The notes under the pieces: model-generated
Seen by the model: only the letters and a program-made list of their open reading frames with translations
Database searches by the model: none
Told to the model about the DNA's origin: nothing
Shown: piece by piece, positions 6,219-15,301 of the stretch
Numbering within the stretch: position 1 is the first letter of the stretch
How the letters are laid out: each line of letters opens with the position of its first letter
Origin: Alphaproteobacteria bacterium
GTDB taxonomy: Bacteria > Pseudomonadota > Alphaproteobacteria > CBCXTS01
Direction of reading: 5' to 3'
DNA length: 64,000 bases
Assembly (NCBI GenBank): GCA_965178085.1
Contig: CBCXTS010000026.1
Location: forward strand, 18,109-82,108
Translations under genes and position numbers: made by a program

Positions 6219-8249
6219 TCAGATAAATGGCCATGGCAGTTGGATATGTTCTTGCAACAAACCCGATGGGAAATTACGCTTAAGGGAATAAGCAAGACCA
6301 ATCATCATTAAAATACCACAAATACTGTATAATATGCTATGCAACAAAGATAATTTTGCTCTTATTTGCATAAAACTTATCAAGAAAAAACCTAAAGCTA
6401 TAATAAAGCCAAAAATATATGTTAAGCCCAGTAATAATAATGGCCAAAATAAGGTCGATAATAAAGAATAGGGGGCATCGGCATCCTCACCTGCCACTTC
6501 TCTATCTGCAAATATAGCATCACCTTCATTATTTCTCATCATTTGTATTAACAAGATAAAACATGATAACATCATGATAGATGCCACAACTAAAGGCACT
6601 ATCTTATCTGTCATTAAACGATCATTAATTAAGGAAGCATTCCAAAAACTAATAATCGCATAGGTCAGCATGCCAAAAAGAAAAATCATAGGTAGGCGTT
6701 TTTTGCCAGCAATGACATTACCTTCAGCATTGATAGTTTTGGTTTGCCTAATACCTAAGATAATAGAAATAATAGTCAATATCAGTAACACAATGACGAT
6801 AGGGCTAAATACATAGCTTAAACCTGCATCCAAACTATCACGAAAACGAAAATTGGCAATTTGATAGGCTTGATTGGTAAATTTTTCAACAGGTTCTGAT
6901 AATACAAACCCAATTAAAAAAGCAGGGCGAGACCAATCAAAACGGCGCATCAAAATACCAAAAAAACCAAAAATATATAACGCTACTAAATCAATAATAT
7001 CTTGGCCTGACTGAAAGGCTGCAAAAGATAATATCATAAATAAGAAAGGAGCAATTAATGTAAATCTTATTTTGGTTAATTTTGCAATATAGGGGGAAGA
7101 AGCAATACACAATGCTGTTCCAATAATATTGGCAAAAGCAAGCAACCATACAATAGCATACGTAATATTAAGGTTGCTTTGTAGCATTTGCGGGCCAACT
7201 TCAATTTCACCAGATCCTAACAAAGCAACAGCCCCAATAAAAATAGCCATAGAGCCAGATCCTGGAATACCAAATAATAAGGTTGGTACTAAACCACCGC
7301 CTTCTTTGGCATTATTAGAACTTTCAGGGCCTATAACACCTCGTATTTCCCCTTTACCAAAGCCAGATTTATCTTTTGTTGTTTGTACCGTATGACCATA
7401 GGCAATCCAATCAACGACTGATCCTCCTAAACCTGGAATAACCCCAACAACCACCCCAATAATAGAACAGCGGATAGATAAAAAAATATTTTGTGACCAT
7501 GCTTTAACGCCGTCAAACCAACCCGCGCCCAATTTATTATCTTTGGCTATAGCATTATCTTGGCGTAATAAAGATACTATTTCAGGAATAGCAAATATAC
7601 CCAAACCTACAATAACTAATTTAAAACCATCTGTAACATAAGGCGTATCATAGCTTGCCATACGCAAACTGCCTCCAGCGTCACTCTCACCGATAGTACC
7701 CACCAAAACACCCAAAGCAGCAGCAGCAATACCTTTAAAAGGAATGCGTCCTGCCAAAATGGCCACCATGGAAAGTCCAAGAAATGTAATCATTAACATT
7801 TCAGGAAGCCCAAAGGCCAACACAATAGGGCGGGCAACTAAAATAAATAATGTAAGAAAAATAGCCCCAATTAAACCACCAAATAAAGATGAGGCAAAAG
7901 CTGCGGATAAAGCTTTTGCTGCCAATCCTTTTTTAGCTAAAGGAAAACCATCAAGTACGGTTGCTTGTGAAGCAGAGGAGCCAGGTATCCCCATAAGAAC
8001 GCTTGCAAAAGTATCAGAAGTTGGCACTACTGCTACCAAACCTATCATCAAGCTTAGTCCTAAAATAGGATCCATACCAAACATAAAAGGTAGTAATAAG
8101 GATAGACCAGCAATACCGCCTAATCCAGGAAAAATGCCTATCATAAGGCCTAAGAAAACCCCTATCATTAAATGCAATAGCACTTCAAATGTTAATATAA
8201 TTGAAAAAGCTGATTGTAATGAGGCGATGGCGTTTAAAAAAATATCCAT
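6219..8249 (-). CDS. tctA: Tripartite tricarboxylate transporter permease, apparent TctA-TctB fusion
   Basis: 676 aa polytopic membrane protein; first about 500 aa look TctA-like, extra C-terminal about 170 aa with 4 TM helices where a separate tctB gene usually sits; downstream of tctC. Confidence 0.7.
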   Translation of the reverse strand: MDIFLNAIASLQSAFSIILTFEVLLHLMIGVFLGLMIGIFPGLGGIAGLSLLLPFMFGMDPILGLSLMIGLVAVVPTSDTFASVLMGIPGSSASQATVLDGFPLAKKGLAAKALSAAFASSLFGGLIGAIFLTLFILVARPIVLAFGLPEMLMITFLGLSMVAILAGRIPFKGIAAAALGVLVGTIGESDAGGSLRMASYDTPYVTDGFKLVIVGLGIFAIPEIVSLLRQDNAIAKDNKLGAGWFDGVKAWSQNIFLSIRCSIIGVVVGVIPGLGGSVVDWIAYGHTVQTTKDKSGFGKGEIRGVIGPESSNNAKEGGGLVPTLLFGIPGSGSMAIFIGAVALLGSGEIEVGPQMLQSNLNITYAIVWLLAFANIIGTALCIASSPYIAKLTKIRFTLIAPFLFMILSFAAFQSGQDIIDLVALYIFGFFGILMRRFDWSRPAFLIGFVLSEPVEKFTNQAYQIANFRFRDSLDAGLSYVFSPIVIVLLILTIISIILGIRQTKTINAEGNVIAGKKRLPMIFLFGMLTYAIISFWNASLINDRLMTDKIVPLVVASIMMLSCFILLIQMMRNNEGDAIFADREVAGEDADAPYSLLSTLFWPLLLLGLTYIFGFIIALGFFLISFMQIRAKLSLLHSILYSICGILMMIGLAYSLKRNFPSGLLQEHIQLPWPFI

Positions 8250-8321
8250 AGAAATTTAAAATTTAAATGGAAGGAACCATCATTATGATGGCTCCTTCTC
8301 TTAAAGAAAAAATGATATATG

Positions 8322-9410
8322 TTATTTTAAAGTAACACCATAATCATTTTCTAACCATTTTTTAACAAAAGCTTTTGCGCTAGCGTCAACATTAATGCCT
8401 TTTTGTAAAGCTTCGCCAGCACCATTACCGGTAAATAATTTATATTTACCTAACCGTTTTGCAGATATTTTGGCAAAATCAGCACGCTCACCAACTTTTT
8501 TAAAGGCCTTTGCAAATGTATCAATAACTTCTTGGTCTGTGCCTGCTGGTAAAAAAGCAATTTTTTGCACAGGGAAACCTGCTACAAAAAAGGCTTTCCA
8601 AGCATTCCATGCTTCGCCCTTTGTTTCACAACCATCTGTTGCTTCACAAACTTCCTTAAACGTTGGCAGGTTAGGGAAAGTTGGGTCACGCACAATATTA
8701 CCATTATCATCTAAAGCGCCCCAACTCATCATAGCCACAGCTTTACCATCTTGAACCAACTTAGCAGAAGCTTTTAGGTAAGAGGATGAGGTTTGATAAT
8801 CAATATTAGCTTCACCACGTTCAAACATTAAACGGCCATCGCCACGGCCTTTAATGCCAAATACTGGCTCAACATCTATACCCAACATTTTCCATGCTAA
8901 TAAAGGCACTAAGTCAAGACGTGTTGCACCTTGTGAGCCATAAATAAATTTTGTATCTTGTAATTTGTTGGCTGAACCATCAAAATTTGCACCATCTTTA
9001 GGGTTGAGATACGCAACACCGCCTGTGCCAGAAGCCATTACAGGGTTCCAATCTTTATATTCATATTTAACACGCGGGTCATCTAAAAGATAAGGAAATT
9101 GTGTGGAACCTGAAGAGCCAAACAATAATGTACCATCTCCATTTTTTTGTTTTTGGAACCAGTTTGCGCCTTTAGTAGAACCTGCACCTGGCATAAATTT
9201 TACTACAACCGTTGGGGTGCCAGGTAATGCTTCTGATAATAAAGGTGCAAAAAAGTTAGCCCATTTAGCTGAACCACCTGTTTCTGAAAATGGAATAATC
9301 CATTCAACTGTTTTGCCTGATAAATCAATATCAGCTTGGGCTGTATTAGCCAGTATAGCAAGAGAAGCAATACCAATTGCCGCTGTTTTTAGCTTTTTTA
9401 TAATTGTCAT
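8322..9410 (-). CDS. tctC: Tripartite tricarboxylate transporter substrate-binding protein TctC (Bug family), with signal peptide
   Basis: Signal peptide AAIGIASLAILANTAQA, about 36 kDa periplasmic binding protein with Bug/TctC-like motifs; first gene of tctC-tctA(B)-prpF-HADH minus-strand operon. Confidence 0.75.
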   Translation of the reverse strand: MTIIKKLKTAAIGIASLAILANTAQADIDLSGKTVEWIIPFSETGGSAKWANFFAPLLSEALPGTPTVVVKFMPGAGSTKGANWFQKQKNGDGTLLFGSSGSTQFPYLLDDPRVKYEYKDWNPVMASGTGGVAYLNPKDGANFDGSANKLQDTKFIYGSQGATRLDLVPLLAWKMLGIDVEPVFGIKGRGDGRLMFERGEANIDYQTSSSYLKASAKLVQDGKAVAMMSWGALDDNGNIVRDPTFPNLPTFKEVCEATDGCETKGEAWNAWKAFFVAGFPVQKIAFLPAGTDQEVIDTFAKAFKKVGERADFAKISAKRLGKYKLFTGNGAGEALQKGINVDASAKAFVKKWLENDYGVTLK

Positions 9411-9456
9411 TATAATCCTCCGTATGAATCGTAATAGTAAAGTTGATAATAAGTAA

Positions 9457-9525
9457 GCGTATTACACTAATTATGTAAAGCGTATTACACTAATTATGTA
9501 AAGCGTATTACACTAATTATGTAAA
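9457..9525. repeat. 3 perfect tandem copies of a 23-bp unit GCGTATTACACTAATTATGTAAA, each carrying TTACA-N7-TGTAA inverted arms and a cGT-att-AC-a GntR-like half-site
   Basis: Read directly; 47-115 bp upstream of the tctC start codon, i.e. in the promoter region of the tct operon. Confidence 0.9.
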
Positions 9526-9606
9526 GACTTTAACATATAAAACTTGCATTATGCTTGCATTTGCTGTGGGTATGGTTTTAATACAAAGTCTGAAAAGTTA
9601 AAATGG

Positions 9607-9720
9607 ATGTCAGTTTTTAACTCACTTAGAAACCTATACGCTCATGAAGGCAGTAAAGAAAAAGGGTTGAATAAAGACGAGGTTGAAACTCTTAAAAAGA
9701 TCCATGCTAATCTTATTTAA
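9607..9720 (+). other. 37-aa ORF / possible gene remnant with HEPN-like R-x4-H motif (MSVFNSLRNLYAHEGSKEKGLNKDEVETLKKIHANLI)
   Basis: Open frame 9541-9720 ends in charged helical tail containing RNLYAH; no upstream domain remains; could be relic of a HEPN toxin/Abi gene or noise. Confidence 0.15.
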
Positions 9721-9943
9721 GGTGACAGAACCCTCTAGTAAAAGTTTATTTGTTGGTGCAAATGTTGGTATATTTGTTTTTTTACATCGGTTTAATATTA
9801 TAAATATCAAATACTTAAAGCCTATTTATGAATGATGCCACCGCCATTTTATGATATGGGCATCCATATCCATTTAGTTACATTTTGATCAATATTGAAG
9901 ATATCAAAGTTGCAATTGTATCTTTGTTCATGATTGGCTGATG

Positions 9944-9990
9944 GGTATCTATTTGCAATCATCGATCAATAGGTTTAGTTTGGGATCTTG
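9944..9990 (+). promoter_or_regulatory. Conserved promoter/leader element copy 1 (putative -35 TTGCAA 9953-9958, 17-bp spacer, putative -10 TAGTTT 9976-9981)
   Basis: About 38/42 nt identical to a second copy at 11062-11108; both sit about 54 nt upstream of paralogous small membrane-protein genes. Confidence 0.4.
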
Positions 9991-10035: not shown

Positions 10036-10251
10036 ATGAAAACAGTTGATATAGTAAAATGGATTGCCACTATCATACAATTAATGGGGTATGGATTAAC
10101 TGGGCTTAACTATACCCCATGGAATATTTATATGTTTATCATTGGTATTATATTGTGGTTTTTGGTTGGCTTTATGTGGAAAGATAAAGCCATTATGATT
10201 GTACATATCGGGGCTTTCTTGTCATTATCAATAGGGTATTTGAATGCATGA
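10036..10251 (+). CDS. Small 3-TM membrane protein, PnuC-repeat-like (resembles C-terminal 3-TM half of nicotinamide riboside transporter PnuC)
   Basis: 71 aa, three hydrophobic helices; paralogous to ORF 11153-11386; W..A....G / W-KDK / I-HIGAF pattern resembles the second PnuC repeat; RBS-like AAAGAG upstream. Confidence 0.55.
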   Translation: MKTVDIVKWIATIIQLMGYGLTGLNYTPWNIYMFIIGIILWFLVGFMWKDKAIMIVHIGAFLSLSIGYLNA

Positions 10252-10753
10252 AATTGGCCAATGGGTGCAAGTTAATGATTCAATGCAAAAAAATTACGCA
10301 TACCAGATTGTAGCGCCATTAGGAGAGGATTTTGATGAGGGTTTTTATCCTGATTTAAGTCCAAAGGATATGCTAGAAATGGGCGTGTTTGAAGGAAAAT
10401 ATTTAAATGATTGTCAAAATGAATTTCCTAGTGATTGGTTTATAAAGATCAAATCAAGCCATAGACCTAATCCATCATTAAACTATTTTAAAATAAAAAG
10501 CAGACAATCTTTAAAAATATGGCAAATGAAGGGATGGATTATAGGTGACGACCCTAGGGGGTGGTTTCAATGGTATTGCAGATATTATCAAGGTAGGAGG
10601 ATGGAAAGCATTGATATGATCCAAATCAAGAGATGGAAAGCATTTTCTAGACATGCAGGACAAATAAGAAAAAACTGCAATCCAAATGATGTTTTATGTA
10701 GACCAAAACAAAGGCAAGCATTATTGCAATGGGCTTATGACCCTTTCATTTAA
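10244..10753 (+). CDS. Hypothetical 169-aa Trp/Cys-rich soluble protein, translationally coupled (ATGCATGA 8-nt overlap) to the small PnuC-like protein
   Basis: Intact ORF with overlap-coupled start; motifs GWFQWYCRYYQGRR and IKRWKAF; no family recognised from memory. Confidence 0.55.
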   Translation: MHEIGQWVQVNDSMQKNYAYQIVAPLGEDFDEGFYPDLSPKDMLEMGVFEGKYLNDCQNEFPSDWFIKIKSSHRPNPSLNYFKIKSRQSLKIWQMKGWIIGDDPRGWFQWYCRYYQGRRMESIDMIQIKRWKAFSRHAGQIRKNCNPNDVLCRPKQRQALLQWAYDPFI

Positions 10754-11061
10754 ACACAGTATGATATGATCATATAAAGTGACACCGAGATAGAGCATCA
10801 AAGCCATTAATCTTTGGTCAAATTTTGCAATGAATGGTTATGTCTTTAGGTCGTTTGAAAGCTGATCTGATAAGGCTTGAACTATGACAACGCCTATATA
10901 TCACATAAGATTTTGAGAGTTTTTTTATTTTTTAACGGTTGATAAAGTCACCAGGTCATCAAACTCAAATCTTGCGTTTTTTGGTGTGTTTTTGCCGTCT
11001 TTTGTTCAAGACTAAACCAAAATATATTTTTGACGCTCTTAAGGTTTTAATGTTTTGCTTA

Positions 11062-11108
11062 GCTATCCATTTGCAATCATCGATGAATGGGTTTAATTTG
11101 ATGGATTG
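11062..11108 (+). promoter_or_regulatory. Conserved promoter/leader element copy 2 (putative -35 TTGCAA 11071-11076, 17-bp spacer, putative -10 TAATTT 11094-11099)
   Basis: Duplicate of element at 9944-9990; about 53 nt upstream of start codon 11153. Confidence 0.4.
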
Positions 11109-11152
11109 GATAAAACAAACCCGATAATTGATCTAATAAAAAGGAATGATGA

Positions 11153-11386
11153 ATGCTCAATCCAAGCAATTTAAAATATTTGGAATGGTTTGCAGTGATC
11201 ACTGCGATAGCGTATTCTTTGCTTGTTGCATCCAATATTGATTTAGAATTTGCTGGTTTTACATTGCTGCTTATTTCTGCAATTGCTTTGGGAGTATGGG
11301 CATATATTGGCAAGCATAAGGGTATATTTTTTTTACAATTTTTTTATGCAACAGCAGCTATCATTGGCATGATCAGGTGGTTTTAG
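11153..11386 (+). CDS. Small 3-TM membrane protein, PnuC N-terminal-repeat-like (half-size PnuC)
   Basis: 77 aa; LEWFAVITAIAYSLLVASNI... and FFLQFFYATAAIIGMIRWF align with the E. coli PnuC N-terminal half as recalled from memory (LSWIEAVGTIAGLLCIGLASLEKISN ... LLLQVFFFAANIYGWYAW); RBS AAGGAA upstream. Confidence 0.6.
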   Translation: MLNPSNLKYLEWFAVITAIAYSLLVASNIDLEFAGFTLLLISAIALGVWAYIGKHKGIFFLQFFYATAAIIGMIRWF

Positions 11387-11440: not shown

Positions 11441-11806
11441 ATGAAAAATAAAGTCATTAATATAAGAGATCAGTTTGATAAAATTGATTCGTTGTGGGCG
11501 CCTAAAATCATGTGCCAATTTAATCAATGTGATTTTAAAATTGTCAAAATTGATGGCGAGTTTATATGGCACTTGCATGAGGATACTGATGAGGTATTTA
11601 TCGTGGTTGAGGGTGAGTTTAATATGGAATTTAGAACCCATATTGAAAAGGTACAACAAGGGGAGATGATTGTTGTTGAAAGAGGGGTTGAACATAGGCC
11701 AGTATCAGCCCAGGAATGTAAAATCATGCTCATAGAGCTTTCAGGCACTTATAATACAGGTAATGTTGAAAGCAACAGAACCAAGCCTATGGATGAATGG
11801 ATTTAA
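11441..11806 (+). CDS. Cupin-domain protein (metal-binding HxH...E...H motif)
   Basis: WHLHEDTDEVFIVVEGEF ... GVEHRP conforms to cupin motifs 1 and 2; 121 aa. Confidence 0.7.
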   Translation: MKNKVINIRDQFDKIDSLWAPKIMCQFNQCDFKIVKIDGEFIWHLHEDTDEVFIVVEGEFNMEFRTHIEKVQQGEMIVVERGVEHRPVSAQECKIMLIELSGTYNTGNVESNRTKPMDEWI

Positions 11807-11930
11807 TTTGATATCAATAAAAACCCAAGAGATAAGGCAGTAAATAGAACATAGTCATGCAATGGAGAATGTGGTATAAGTTAATGAAAAGCAATATCAC
11901 TCAATCATCATTAATAGGGCATATTTATTT

Positions 11931-12806
11931 GTGGATATGACGGATAAATTAGATAGCCGAGATAGCATTGTATTTGAGTTGGTTGATCTTGAGCAATATC
12001 CTATACATAGGATCAACGAACCAGCAGGCAAAGGGCATAATTTTTTAAAGCGTTGCCAACAGCATATGGAGGAATATGGCTGGTGCAATTTTGTCGAATT
12101 TATCAAACCTGAGGCACTCAATATTTTGCGTAATGAGGCTCTTGATTTATTGCCATCTGCTCAAATTTTAACCATTAGAAGAAATATTTATCAAGGTGCG
12201 GTTGAAAATAGTATGGACCCTGATGATTTAAAATCGCGTGAATATGTGCATACTGCACATCAATTGGCTGATGATCAAATCCCTAATCATAGTGCTATAC
12301 AAAAACTATATCAATCAACATTGGTGACAGATTTTATTAGACAAGTGCAAAAAAAGGACACCCTCTATCGTTGTAGCGATGAGTTTCAAGCGCTTAATAT
12401 TGTTGCTCTCAATCCTGAAAGTTGGCATGCTTGGCATTATGATACAATAGAATGCACCGTAACATTATTGTTGCAAGCATCAGAGCAGGGAGGTGAGTTT
12501 ACGTTTATCCCCAACTCTCGTGATGATGAAATGGAAGATACACAAAGAGTTAATCAAGTGCTTGGAGGTGATCTGTCAAAAGCAGAAACTTTTAAAAGAG
12601 ATGCAGGCGCATTAACGTTATTTCGTGGTGGATATTCATTGCACTCAGTTACAAAAGTAAAAGGCACAAAACCACGAGTTACTGCAATTTTTACCTATAG
12701 TGAAGAACCTCATGGTGCAATCAGCGATGATCTTAATATTAGAATTTATGGTAAAAGGGCTGAAAATATAATCAACCAAAGAAAGTTAAAAAAGGAAATC
12801 CAATGA
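11931..12806 (+). CDS. Putative Fe(II)/2-oxoglutarate-dependent oxygenase-family protein
   Basis: HxD...H candidate facial triad (WHYD ... SLHSV) and RVTAIFTY candidate 2OG-binding Arg; 4-nt ATGA overlap with downstream hydrolase gene. Confidence 0.5.
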   Translation: MDMTDKLDSRDSIVFELVDLEQYPIHRINEPAGKGHNFLKRCQQHMEEYGWCNFVEFIKPEALNILRNEALDLLPSAQILTIRRNIYQGAVENSMDPDDLKSREYVHTAHQLADDQIPNHSAIQKLYQSTLVTDFIRQVQKKDTLYRCSDEFQALNIVALNPESWHAWHYDTIECTVTLLLQASEQGGEFTFIPNSRDDEMEDTQRVNQVLGGDLSKAETFKRDAGALTLFRGGYSLHSVTKVKGTKPRVTAIFTYSEEPHGAISDDLNIRIYGKRAENIINQRKLKKEIQ

Positions 12807-13363
12807 CAATAGCCCTTTTAGTAATTGATGTACAAATGGCTTTAGCAATTGATGATGCCAATGGTGGAGAACGCTCATGCCGAGAGGCTGAGGGGAATAT
12901 TGGTCAATTATTGTCAGCATTTAGACAAACAGATCATCGTGTCATCCATATCCATCATTATGGACTTGATGATGATGATCCGTTTAATGAAAAGGCTGTT
13001 GGCTCAAAAGTGCAACCATTTGCTAAGCCCAATAATGGAGAAAAAACATATGTCAAAAATGGCAGCAGTGCATTTATAGGCACAACGTTAGAAAAAGATT
13101 TACGTAAAGATAATATCAAAACATTAATCCTTTGTGGTGCAACAGCAAATCATTGTGTTGAAACAGCAACACGCATGGGAAGTAACCTTGGATTTGATTG
13201 TTATTATGTTGGTGATGCTGTTTGGGCCTATGGTGTAAAAGGGCCAGATGGTACCCACCATAGTGGTGAGCAAATACATTCTGTATCGATGGCTAATATA
13301 GAAGGTGAGTTTGCTAGAGTTGTAACAACCAAAAAAATACTAGCTGATTTGGCTAGTTTTTAA
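12803..13363 (+). CDS. Isochorismatase-family cysteine hydrolase (same fold/family as nicotinamidase PncA, YcaC, RutB)
   Basis: Catalytic Asp in LLVIDVQ, Lys in YVKNGSSAF, nucleophile Cys in LILCGATANHCVETA. Confidence 0.8.
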   Translation: MTIALLVIDVQMALAIDDANGGERSCREAEGNIGQLLSAFRQTDHRVIHIHHYGLDDDDPFNEKAVGSKVQPFAKPNNGEKTYVKNGSSAFIGTTLEKDLRKDNIKTLILCGATANHCVETATRMGSNLGFDCYYVGDAVWAYGVKGPDGTHHSGEQIHSVSMANIEGEFARVVTTKKILADLASF

Positions 13364-13660: not shown

Positions 13661-15301
13661 TTAGGTTTCTTGTAAGATGAGATCGGATACTTTTTCTGCA
13701 ACCATGATAGTGGGTGCGTTTGTGTTGCCTGAGGTGAGAGTTGGGAAAATGGAGGCATCTACAACGCGCAAGCCTTTAACGCCATATAGTTTTAAATGCT
13801 GATCGACAACATCCTCTTGTGCATTTGGGCCCATTTTGCAAGTACCTACCGGGTGAAAAACCGTGCTACAGCGTTTCTTGAAATCGTCAATAATTTGCTG
13901 GTCTGTCGGGATTGGTTGGTCGCTAGGGGCTTGCTGACTGCTGGGGTTGGCAATAGGCGGAGCAATTCTGTGTTCAGTAATGGCTGCTAAGGCTGGCATT
14001 TTTGCAAGTTGATATAGCAATTGAACACCTTCAAGCATCTCGTCAATATCGCGTTGGTCATCGAGATATTTGGGTTGGATATGAGGGGCAATTGTGGGAT
14101 CGCTGGATGCGATATTGATAAAGCCTTTGCTATAAGGTCGCAAAGGTTGGATAGATAATTGAAAGCCCGGGAAGGGATCAGGTTTGAGCAAGGGTCGTTG
14201 ATTTTGGGGTGCTTTGGTGTAGCTCACAGGTGAGAAAAAAAGCTGCATGTTGGGGCGGGTCAAGCCAGTGTTGGTGCGGATAAAACCCCCTGCTTGATTA
14301 ACCCCAAGAGAAAGCGGGCCTTTTAAAGTAAATAGATAGCGTAATGCGTGCTTAACTTTACCCCAAAGCGGGCCTAATTCTTGGTTAAGGGTAGGCGTGT
14401 TAGCACGATAAAGCAAATCAATGCCTAGATGATCTTGCAAATTTTGTCCAACAGCAGGTGCATGATGGATCACTTTGATGCCAAATTGCTTGATGAGATT
14501 GGCATCACCAATGCCGGATAATTGTAAAATTTGGGGTGAGTTAATTGCCCCAGCAGCAAGAATAACCTCTTTTGCAGCAGAAATTTGCTTGATTTGGTTG
14601 TTGTGCTTATACTCAACACCTATTGCTTGTTTGTTGTGAAACAAAACACGTTGCACTAATGCCTTTTTGATTAGTTTAACATTGTTGCGTTTTCGAGCAT
14701 CCCACAAATAAGCGCGCGCGCTTGACATACGAAAACCACCCTTCATGGTGTTTTGGTAGTAACCTACGCCTTCTTGGGTTTTGTTGTTGAAATCTGGATT
14801 ATAGGAAAAGCCATACTGGGTGCATGCCTTGATAAAATTGTGGCAAATTGGATGTAAATCTTGACTGACATCGGTAATATGCAAAGGCCCTTGATGATCG
14901 GGGCTTGAGGTAGAGCTTGTCTCAGCTTTTTTGAAATAGGGTAAAACATCATCCCAACCCCATATTGTGTTACCAAGTGCTTTCCAATGGTTAAAATCTT
15001 CTGCCTGTCCGCGGATGTAGACCATTGCATTGATAGAACTTGAGCCACCTAAAACTTTACCGCGTGGGCAATAAATGCGCCTATCATCGAGGTTTTTTTG
15101 CTCTTGGGTTTGATACATCCAATTGATATTGCTATCATAAAAAGCCTTGCCGTACCCGATAGGCATTTGTACCCATAGATTGAGATCAGAGCCGCCAGCT
15201 TCAAGAATAGCAACGGTGTATTTTCCATTTTGTGACAATCGATTAGCAAGCACGCATCCAGCAGAGCCAGCTCCGACAATAATGAAGTCATATTGATCCA
15301 T
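13661..15301 (-). CDS. GMC-family FAD oxidoreductase (choline dehydrogenase-like)
   Basis: N-terminal YDFIIVGAGSAGCVLANRLS FAD motif, about 546 aa, GMC signature regions. Confidence 0.85.
   Translation of the reverse strand: MDQYDFIIVGAGSAGCVLANRLSQNGKYTVAILEAGGSDLNLWVQMPIGYGKAFYDSNINWMYQTQEQKNLDDRRIYCPRGKVLGGSSSINAMVYIRGQAEDFNHWKALGNTIWGWDDVLPYFKKAETSSTSSPDHQGPLHITDVSQDLHPICHNFIKACTQYGFSYNPDFNNKTQEGVGYYQNTMKGGFRMSSARAYLWDARKRNNVKLIKKALVQRVLFHNKQAIGVEYKHNNQIKQISAAKEVILAAGAINSPQILQLSGIGDANLIKQFGIKVIHHAPAVGQNLQDHLGIDLLYRANTPTLNQELGPLWGKVKHALRYLFTLKGPLSLGVNQAGGFIRTNTGLTRPNMQLFFSPVSYTKAPQNQRPLLKPDPFPGFQLSIQPLRPYSKGFINIASSDPTIAPHIQPKYLDDQRDIDEMLEGVQLLYQLAKMPALAAITEHRIAPPIANPSSQQAPSDQPIPTDQQIIDDFKKRCSTVFHPVGTCKMGPNAQEDVVDQHLKLYGVKGLRVVDASIFPTLTSGNTNAPTIMVAEKVSDLILQET

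Follow-up and report, generated by a model that had tools for sequence, protein, structure and literature searches.

A free-standing homologue of the first three-helix domain of Pnu transporters and a neighbouring DUF6552 protein in an alphaproteobacterial genome: a candidate half-size Pnu form

Does an alphaproteobacterial genome encode the transporter PnuC as two separate halves? The question is raised by a stretch of 64,000 nucleotides (nt) of contig CBCXTS010000026.1 from the Alphaproteobacteria bacterium assembly GCA_965178085.1 (positions 18,109 to 82,108 of the forward strand; hereafter the window), in which two small open reading frames (ORFs), ORF1 and ORF2, each encode a protein with three predicted transmembrane helices (TMs) (Table 1). 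A preliminary description took the two proteins for paralogues corresponding to the second and the first repeat of PnuC, respectively, each expressed from its own promoter, and suggested that together they form an obligate heterodimer, a split ‘semi-PnuC’. Half of this proposal stands: ORF2 is a free-standing homologue of the N-terminal domain, but ORF1 is not a PnuC half. The best reading, to which we assign a probability of roughly 55%, is that ORF2 is a ‘semi-Pnu’ facilitator acting mostly as a homodimer, that ORF1 is a separate protein of the Pfam family DUF6552, and that the two genes are co-regulated in this genome.

Both ORFs were found as described, with the quoted peptides. Each starts with ATG and is preceded by a Shine-Dalgarno-like sequence (AAGAG/AAGGA). 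AlphaFold2 models that were built with the family alignments as input contained three long helices for each protein, namely residues 3–23, 29–48 and 51–70 of ORF1 (predicted local distance difference test, pLDDT, 89) and residues 4–26, 32–52 and 56–75 of ORF2 (pLDDT 93). In size and helix number both are comparable to SemiSWEETs, for which about 80–100 aa and three TMs are typical. Lysine and arginine residues are distributed alike in both families: the N-terminal tail and loop 2 have about two each, loop 1 has none and the C-terminal tail none or one. The positive-inside rule predicts for both proteins a membrane orientation with the N-terminus inside and the C-terminus outside, and since they share this charge bias they would be parallel to each other.

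On sequence evidence, ORF2 is remotely homologous to the first three-helix domain (TM1–3) of the Pnu transporters, the family of the nicotinamide riboside transporter PnuC and the thiamine transporter PnuT (PF04973; structure 4QTN). The Pfam model NMN_transporter (PF04973) matched ORF2 over its whole length at profile positions 2–66 of 175 (E-value 0.0028, 18.1 bits). The comparison of both peptides with this model, which the preliminary description had proposed as a check, thus gave the partial N-half match for ORF2 but no match for ORF1. In an alignment of 22 diverse members of the ORF2 family, with identities down to 35%, 19 matched the model independently (best E-value 1.2e-5, 25.8 bits), and the register was constant in all ten members checked, running from profile positions 1–3 to 66–71. 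When a PnuC hidden Markov model (HMM) was run against all six-frame ORFs of at least 45 amino acids (aa) in the window, ORF2 was the single best match (E-value 0.0018; next best 0.39), and these ORFs contained neither a full-length pnuC nor any remnant of TM4–7.

The relationship was also recovered by profile–profile comparison. Using hhalign, the ORF2 family was aligned to a PnuC alignment of 11 sequences, consisting of E. coli PnuC and ten phage PnuCs. The match had a probability of 85% (P 6e-6) and covered 74 columns, corresponding to residues 23–97 of E. coli PnuC (TM1–3). The C-terminal repeat of PnuC gave a weak alternative match (P 0.006), and a reversed-sequence control gave P 0.5. As a null model we permuted the columns of the ORF2 alignment, because a circular shift is not valid for hhalign, in which local alignment recovers contiguous blocks. 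The real score of 35.8 lay well above the 150 permutations (mean 11.7, standard deviation 2.3, maximum 18.7). Therefore, the match between ORF2 and PnuC is not caused by hydrophobic composition, and the likeness to the first PnuC repeat that the preliminary description had pointed out holds.

The alignment includes residues to which a role in gating has been assigned. In the Pnu transporters, TM3 and TM7 each have at their C-terminal end a Trp that serves as the inner gate, and a Tyr that precedes this Trp by 11 residues contributes to the outer gate (PMC5749112). ORF2 carries Y65 and W76, likewise 11 residues apart and conserved in the family, which match the gate pair of Pnu TM3 (Tyr-x10-Trp), and the TM3 signature LQxF[YF]A...G...W is kept together with these gate positions. 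Further residues conserved in the ORF2 family include E11, Y21, N28, E32, W49, Q62, G72 and R75. The Pnu transporters differ from ORF2 in having a 7-TM core, made up of two three-helix domains and a linker, where ORF2 has three TMs. In the published structure of PnuC the three-helix domains are parallel, and not inverted as the preliminary description had assumed. The two domains are joined by TM4 (PMC5749112).

ORF2 belongs to a large family of uniformly small proteins. Its homologues form more than 1,100 clusters at 90% identity, most of them 74–79 aa long, and about 40 positions are invariant among close relatives. An exhaustive HMMER search with ORF2 of 1.8 billion representative proteins returned just 259 relatives (representatives at 50% identity, E-value at most 0.001). 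Of these, 150 were listed; all of them were at most 139 aa long and none was a full-length 7-TM PnuC. Its members are very common in Pelagibacteraceae, and one variant occurs on 988 contigs. In SAR11 loci the homologue stands alone, its neighbours differ from locus to locus, and LysE-family genes are often next to it. Genes for LysE/RhtB-family exporters adjoin ORF2-family genes in three arrangements, in which the two genes converge and overlap, diverge, or share a strand with the exporter gene downstream (loci L001, 6222–6833; L006, 4716–5977; L177, 3904–4605). This adjacency could indicate a functional link or could reflect the many LysE genes of SAR11.

Precomputed Pfam matches were absent for the window ORF2 and its close relatives. 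One divergent relative, P0319 (locus L193, 221–496), had a precomputed weak match to the Pfam family PF26604 (CBU_0592), which may be the nearest curated family, meaning that similar small proteins may already have been curated; a literature search found no paper on PF26604. Another divergent relative, P0390, matched both NMN_transporter and DUF6552 weakly (E-value 0.12 for DUF6552). The product of a small gene beside P0390 is not a membrane protein.

The identity of ORF1 is different. It is a full-length member of DUF6552 (PF20189), with no difference in sequence that would set it apart from the family (E-value 5.4e-30, 104 bits against a cut-off of 27, profile positions 12–77 of 78); the window ORF2 had no match to this model. 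All 363 homologues of ORF1 were annotated with this one Pfam family. That ORF1 is a paralogue of ORF2 was rejected, as BLASTP aligned only eight residues of the two proteins and hhalign gave a probability of 0.5% for the two families. Its assignment to the second PnuC repeat was likewise abandoned: none of 19 DUF6552 members matched NMN_transporter, and the hhalign match to PnuC (probability 1.2%, 12 columns) was at the level of the reversed control.

Outside its own family, DUF6552 is similar, weakly, only to SemiSWEETs. The top sequence matches in the PDB were all SemiSWEETs (E-values 0.13–0.4) and extended across TM2–TM3. The NCBIfam models SemiSWEET_2 and SemiSWEET_3 were matched by 16 and 11 of the 19 members, respectively, with a best E-value of about 0.008 and scores far below the cut-offs; ORF1 itself scored 12.3 bits against an NCBIfam SemiSWEET cut-off of 80. 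ORF2 gave no match to the NCBIfam SemiSWEET models (NF037968/NF037969). SemiSWEETs are characterized by a PQ motif in TM1 and by a Trp/Asn pair that binds the substrate. TM1 of ORF1 has Q15 and no Pro, and a HMMER alignment to 4qnc places W41 of ORF1 at the substrate-binding Trp and H57 at the Asn position. We regard this similarity as suggestive only. Several NCBI records misname the DUF6552 protein as ‘ubiquinone biosynthesis methyltransferase UbiE’, and no paper on DUF6552 was found in a literature search.

ORF1 and ORF2 are connected in the window by a shared upstream element. The 64-kb window contains exactly two copies of the 32-nt pattern ATTTGCAATCATCGATsAATrGGTTTArTTTG, where a pattern search expects 0 copies by chance, and the two copies lie at nearly the same distance from the start codons of ORF1 and ORF2 (Table 1). 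They are identical at 29 of 32 positions, and alignment of the upstream regions extends the similarity to about 50 nt. The element is legible as TTGCAA-17 nt-TAGTTT in copy 1 and TTGCAA-17 nt-TAATTT in copy 2. It also contains a dyad, ATCTATT/AATAGGT in copy 1 and ATCCATT/AATGGGT in copy 2, in which the difference between the copies is compensated, since the C/T of the left arm pairs with the G/A of the right arm. We read it as a promoter plus an operator, which would imply that ORF1 and ORF2 are co-regulated. The claim that each gene has its own promoter is in this way partly borne out by the shared element, but a consensus scan made no promoter call. A riboswitch upstream of the two ORFs was considered and rejected: an Rfam scan found nothing relevant, the two leaders neither fold alike nor with unusual stability, and the element was not found in relatives.

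In the preferred reading, ORF2 would be a single triple-helix-bundle (THB) protein of the inner membrane that shares descent with Pnu TM1–3. It would most likely form parallel dimers, which in most genomes would consist of two copies of itself, and so relate to PnuC as SemiSWEET relates to its 7-TM relative SWEET. SemiSWEET, a bacterial single-THB sugar facilitator of about 75–90 aa with three TMs, has its helices in a 1-3-2 arrangement and is a parallel homodimer whose pore needs the dimer, and single-THB proteins in general are classified as acting as dimers and two-THB proteins as monomers (PMC12280002). The ORF2 dimer would then form a six-helix facilitator through which a small solute moves down its gradient, with Tyr65 of TM3 as the outer and Trp76 as the inner gate. 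ORF1 and ORF2 would act under the same condition by way of their near-identical promoter/operator elements, and may also pair. A bolder version, which we consider rather improbable, holds that the ORF2 family is a true ‘SemiPnu’, the single-THB equivalent of the Pnu vitamin transporters, and a major uptake route of SAR11 and other streamlined marine bacteria, and that in some lineages, this genome among them, it forms a mixed heterodimer with the SemiSWEET-like DUF6552 protein. Subunits of two THB families would then share one pore, possibly for a cationic solute such as choline or a vitamin precursor.

Several points weigh against the semi-Pnu reading. Firstly, no member of the ORF2 family reaches the Pfam gathering threshold of NMN_transporter (27.3 bits), the best falling short at 25.8. 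Sequence and profile searches of the PDB with the family matched no solved Pnu structure, and structure searches with the monomer models of ORF1 and ORF2 were non-specific. Secondly, the THB units of PnuC and of SWEET/SemiSWEET are oriented with the N-terminus outside and the C-terminus inside, and the orientation predicted for ORF1 and ORF2 is the reverse. Thirdly, no gene for a vitamin-trapping kinase such as a nadR/NR kinase or a thiamine kinase lies near ORF2, either among its neighbours in the window or in the SAR11 loci, which contain LysE and other unrelated genes, and the Rfam scan of the locus had no match and hence found no vitamin riboswitch. In addition, the consensus scan called no promoter at the upstream element, which occurs in only two copies and was not found in relatives. 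Lastly, the ligand motif of the Pnu transporters, WxxW(x)3D/N in TM6 (PMC5749112), is absent from ORF2 (and from ORF1), as read from their sequences. For ORF2 this is expected, since it corresponds to the N-terminal repeat. Since the motif is missing, a PnuC-like mode of binding nicotinamide riboside or thiamine as substrate is improbable for ORF2.

The gene context of DUF6552 leads to a different explanation, in which neither protein is a transporter. In 23 of 80 genome loci, from Roseobacter-group bacteria, the DUF6552 gene is the X of a betI-(betC)-betB-X-betA operon, flanked by betB and betA (among others L010, 5001–5228, and L016, L022, L023, L032 and L035). This operon converts choline to glycine betaine and also serves the catabolism of choline-O-sulfate. 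The DUF6552 gene appears to be translationally coupled there; in Cognatiyoonia both ends of its coding sequence overlap the neighbouring genes at the start and stop codons. In two further loci of the 80 it stands beside dimethylglycine-dehydrogenase-like genes. The small ORF between betB and betA is not mentioned in the Roseobacter choline literature that was checked. BetA, the membrane-associated choline dehydrogenase, could thus have DUF6552 as its membrane anchor or partner, and ORF2-family proteins could in turn partner LysE-type exporters or another complex, in which case the likeness to PnuC would reflect only shared helical-hairpin ancestry. The choline-dehydrogenase-like GMC oxidoreductase that is encoded 3.4 kb from the DUF6552 gene of the window fits this explanation, since DUF6552 relatives elsewhere adjoin betA, as do the three arrangements in which LysE genes flank ORF2 homologues, the lack of the Pnu ligand motif and the non-specific fold searches. 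It does not readily account for the conservation of the Pnu TM3 gate residues across the ORF2 family, nor for an alignment that spans the full THB unit and not one helix. The LysE adjacency may be a matter of chance in LysE-rich SAR11 genomes, and 57 of the 80 DUF6552 loci lie outside bet operons, in diverse contexts with neighbours such as guaA and rplP. We therefore regard an accessory role for both proteins as unlikely. For ORF1 on its own, a small facilitator or an accessory membrane subunit tied to quaternary-amine metabolism is probably the right description.

The original proposal of two non-identical halves must be weighed against how often the two families meet. HMM searches of all fetched loci found both in only three: the window, a Thalassobium metagenome-assembled genome (L080) and an actinobacteria-like locus (L113) with the gene order ddl-thiL-DUF6552-yqeY-ORF2-rpmB-recG. 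In each of these unrelated backgrounds the DUF6552 gene lies upstream of the ORF2-family gene, on the same strand and less than 1 kb away. By a rough estimate this synteny exceeds chance, for which the expectation is about 0.03 per sampled set. An obligate parallel heterodimer, in which ORF1 takes the place of the C-terminal repeat of PnuC, would agree with this recurrent order, with the near-identical element at equal distance upstream of both genes, with the equal predicted topology of the two proteins and with the weak matches of P0390 to both models. It also has a precedent in heterodimeric single-THB transporters such as MPC1/MPC2, where two non-identical 3-TM subunits form one transporter (PMC12280002). 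The MPC subunits are mutually paralogous, but between ORF1 and ORF2 no relationship was detected, nor was any sequence relationship of either to MPC, and co-occurrence of the ORF1 and ORF2 families is the exception. DUF6552 was without a nearby ORF2 relative in 86 of 88 loci, among them the recurrent bet operons, and 90 of 92 ORF2-family loci outside the window had no DUF6552 gene nearby. SAR11, the group richest in the ORF2 family, where its genes are solitary, had no named match among 120 DUF6552 proteins listed. ORF1, moreover, resembles neither PnuC nor ORF2 and does not have the TM6 motif of Pnu transporters. In L080, the reading frame of the second DUF6552 copy (9315–9572) is interrupted by a TAG nine codons short of the usual end, and the ORF2 homologue follows 105 nt later. 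Since most loci of each family have no partner nearby, an obligate ORF1–ORF2 heterodimer seems unlikely as a general rule, and the proposal as a whole we judge quite unlikely. A facultative or lineage-specific pairing of DUF6552 with ORF2 is possible. In L080, the region 7800–9900 contains an AT-rich insert with an extra DUF6552 copy (8001–8213) and a 195-aa ORF (8544–9131), flanked by repeated GTTAGAAAGT-like sequences.

A further alternative, one of the circumstances under which the preliminary description would have been wrong, is that ORF1 and ORF2 are what is left of a full-length pnuC that was disrupted recently. It has nothing in its favour beyond the N-half similarity of ORF2 and is hardly credible. 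The two ORFs lie 900 nt from each other, an unrelated conserved gene stands in between, ORF1 is not PnuC-like, and the window contains no TM4–7 remnant. The ORF2 family is abundant and its genes are usually solitary; across hundreds of genomes in which the surrounding genes differ, orthologues keep a length of about 75 aa and the stop position, so that ORF2 is no broken pnuC.

The conserved gene in between, ORF3, overlaps the end of ORF1 by eight nt and is therefore probably co-translated with it. Its family has more than 8,000 homologues, of which the best 120 are 64–74% identical and mostly from Alphaproteobacteria (Rickettsiales, Maritalea, Terasakiella and Rhodobacterales), and it had no match in Pfam, NCBIfam, PHROG or the PDB. 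This conservation is strikingly high for an unannotated protein. ORF3 as a conserved partner of DUF6552 was rejected, because the pairing was seen in none of the 80 DUF6552 loci; elsewhere a homologue follows gltB.

Downstream, ORF2 is separated by 54 nt, without a terminator-like site, from genes for a cupin, an iron/2-oxoglutarate (Fe/2OG) oxygenase and an isochorismatase-family hydrolase. These may form an operon with ORF2, and may constitute a small catabolic operon for an amide or amine compound. They were not found beside ORF2 homologues in the other loci examined, so that the association is specific to the window. The isochorismatase-like gene was also considered as the nicotinamidase PncA, which would have provided a link to NAD salvage, but this was without support, as it matched in NCBIfam only weakly, to a generic hydrolase, biuret amidohydrolase and RutB. 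Close upstream, on the minus strand (6219–9410), a 676-aa multi-pass membrane protein is encoded together with a 362-aa ORF resembling a periplasmic binding protein; by eye the pair resembles a tripartite tricarboxylate transporter (TctA/TctC-type), and NCBIfam had no match for the 362-aa ORF.

Table 1. Position and description of the features discussed (coordinates refer to the window)
Feature	Position	Strand	Description
ORF1	10036–10251	+	71 aa; 3-TM protein, Pfam DUF6552, weakly SemiSWEET-like
ORF2	11153–11386	+	77 aa; single triple-helix-bundle protein, ‘semi-Pnu’ candidate, remote homologue of Pnu (PnuC/PnuT) TM1–3 by sequence
Upstream element, copy 1	9937–9987 (core 9951–9982)	+	Core ATTTGCAATCATCGATCAATAGGTTTAGTTTG; ends 53 nt before the ATG of ORF1
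Upstream element, copy 2	11056–11106 (core 11069–11100)	+	Core ATTTGCAATCATCGATGAATGGGTTTAATTTG; ends 52 nt before the ATG of ORF2
ORF3	10244–10753	+	169 aa; 8-nt overlap with the end of ORF1; conserved alphaproteobacterial family
Possible downstream operon partners of ORF2	11441–13363	+	Cupin, HalD-like Fe/2OG oxygenase and isochorismatase-family hydrolase (Pfam, NCBIfam)
Cupin	11441–11806	+	Pfam/NCBIfam
HalD/WelO5-like Fe/2OG oxygenase	11931–12806	+	Pfam/NCBIfam
Isochorismatase-family hydrolase	12803–13363	+	Pfam/NCBIfam
GMC oxidoreductase, choline-dehydrogenase-like	13661–15301	−	565 bits; cut-off of the NCBIfam choline dehydrogenase subfamily 605

The half-size SemiSWEET has been central to understanding transport by the SWEET fold and its evolution. 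For the Pnu transporters, no paper on a half-size PnuC was found in a literature search, and the published classes of THB transporters include no half-size Pnu form (PMC12280002). If the semi-Pnu reading of ORF2 is true, its family of about 75 aa related to Pnu TM1–3 would supply this missing form and a minimal system for Pnu-type gating, and SAR11 would possess a solute-uptake gene that has gone unrecognised. As for ORF1, DUF6552 often lies in betI-betC-betB-X-betA operons elsewhere, and none of the other loci examined showed the pairing with ORF3 that the window has. Its position inside choline-oxidation operons offers a testable link to quaternary-amine metabolism for a domain of unknown function.

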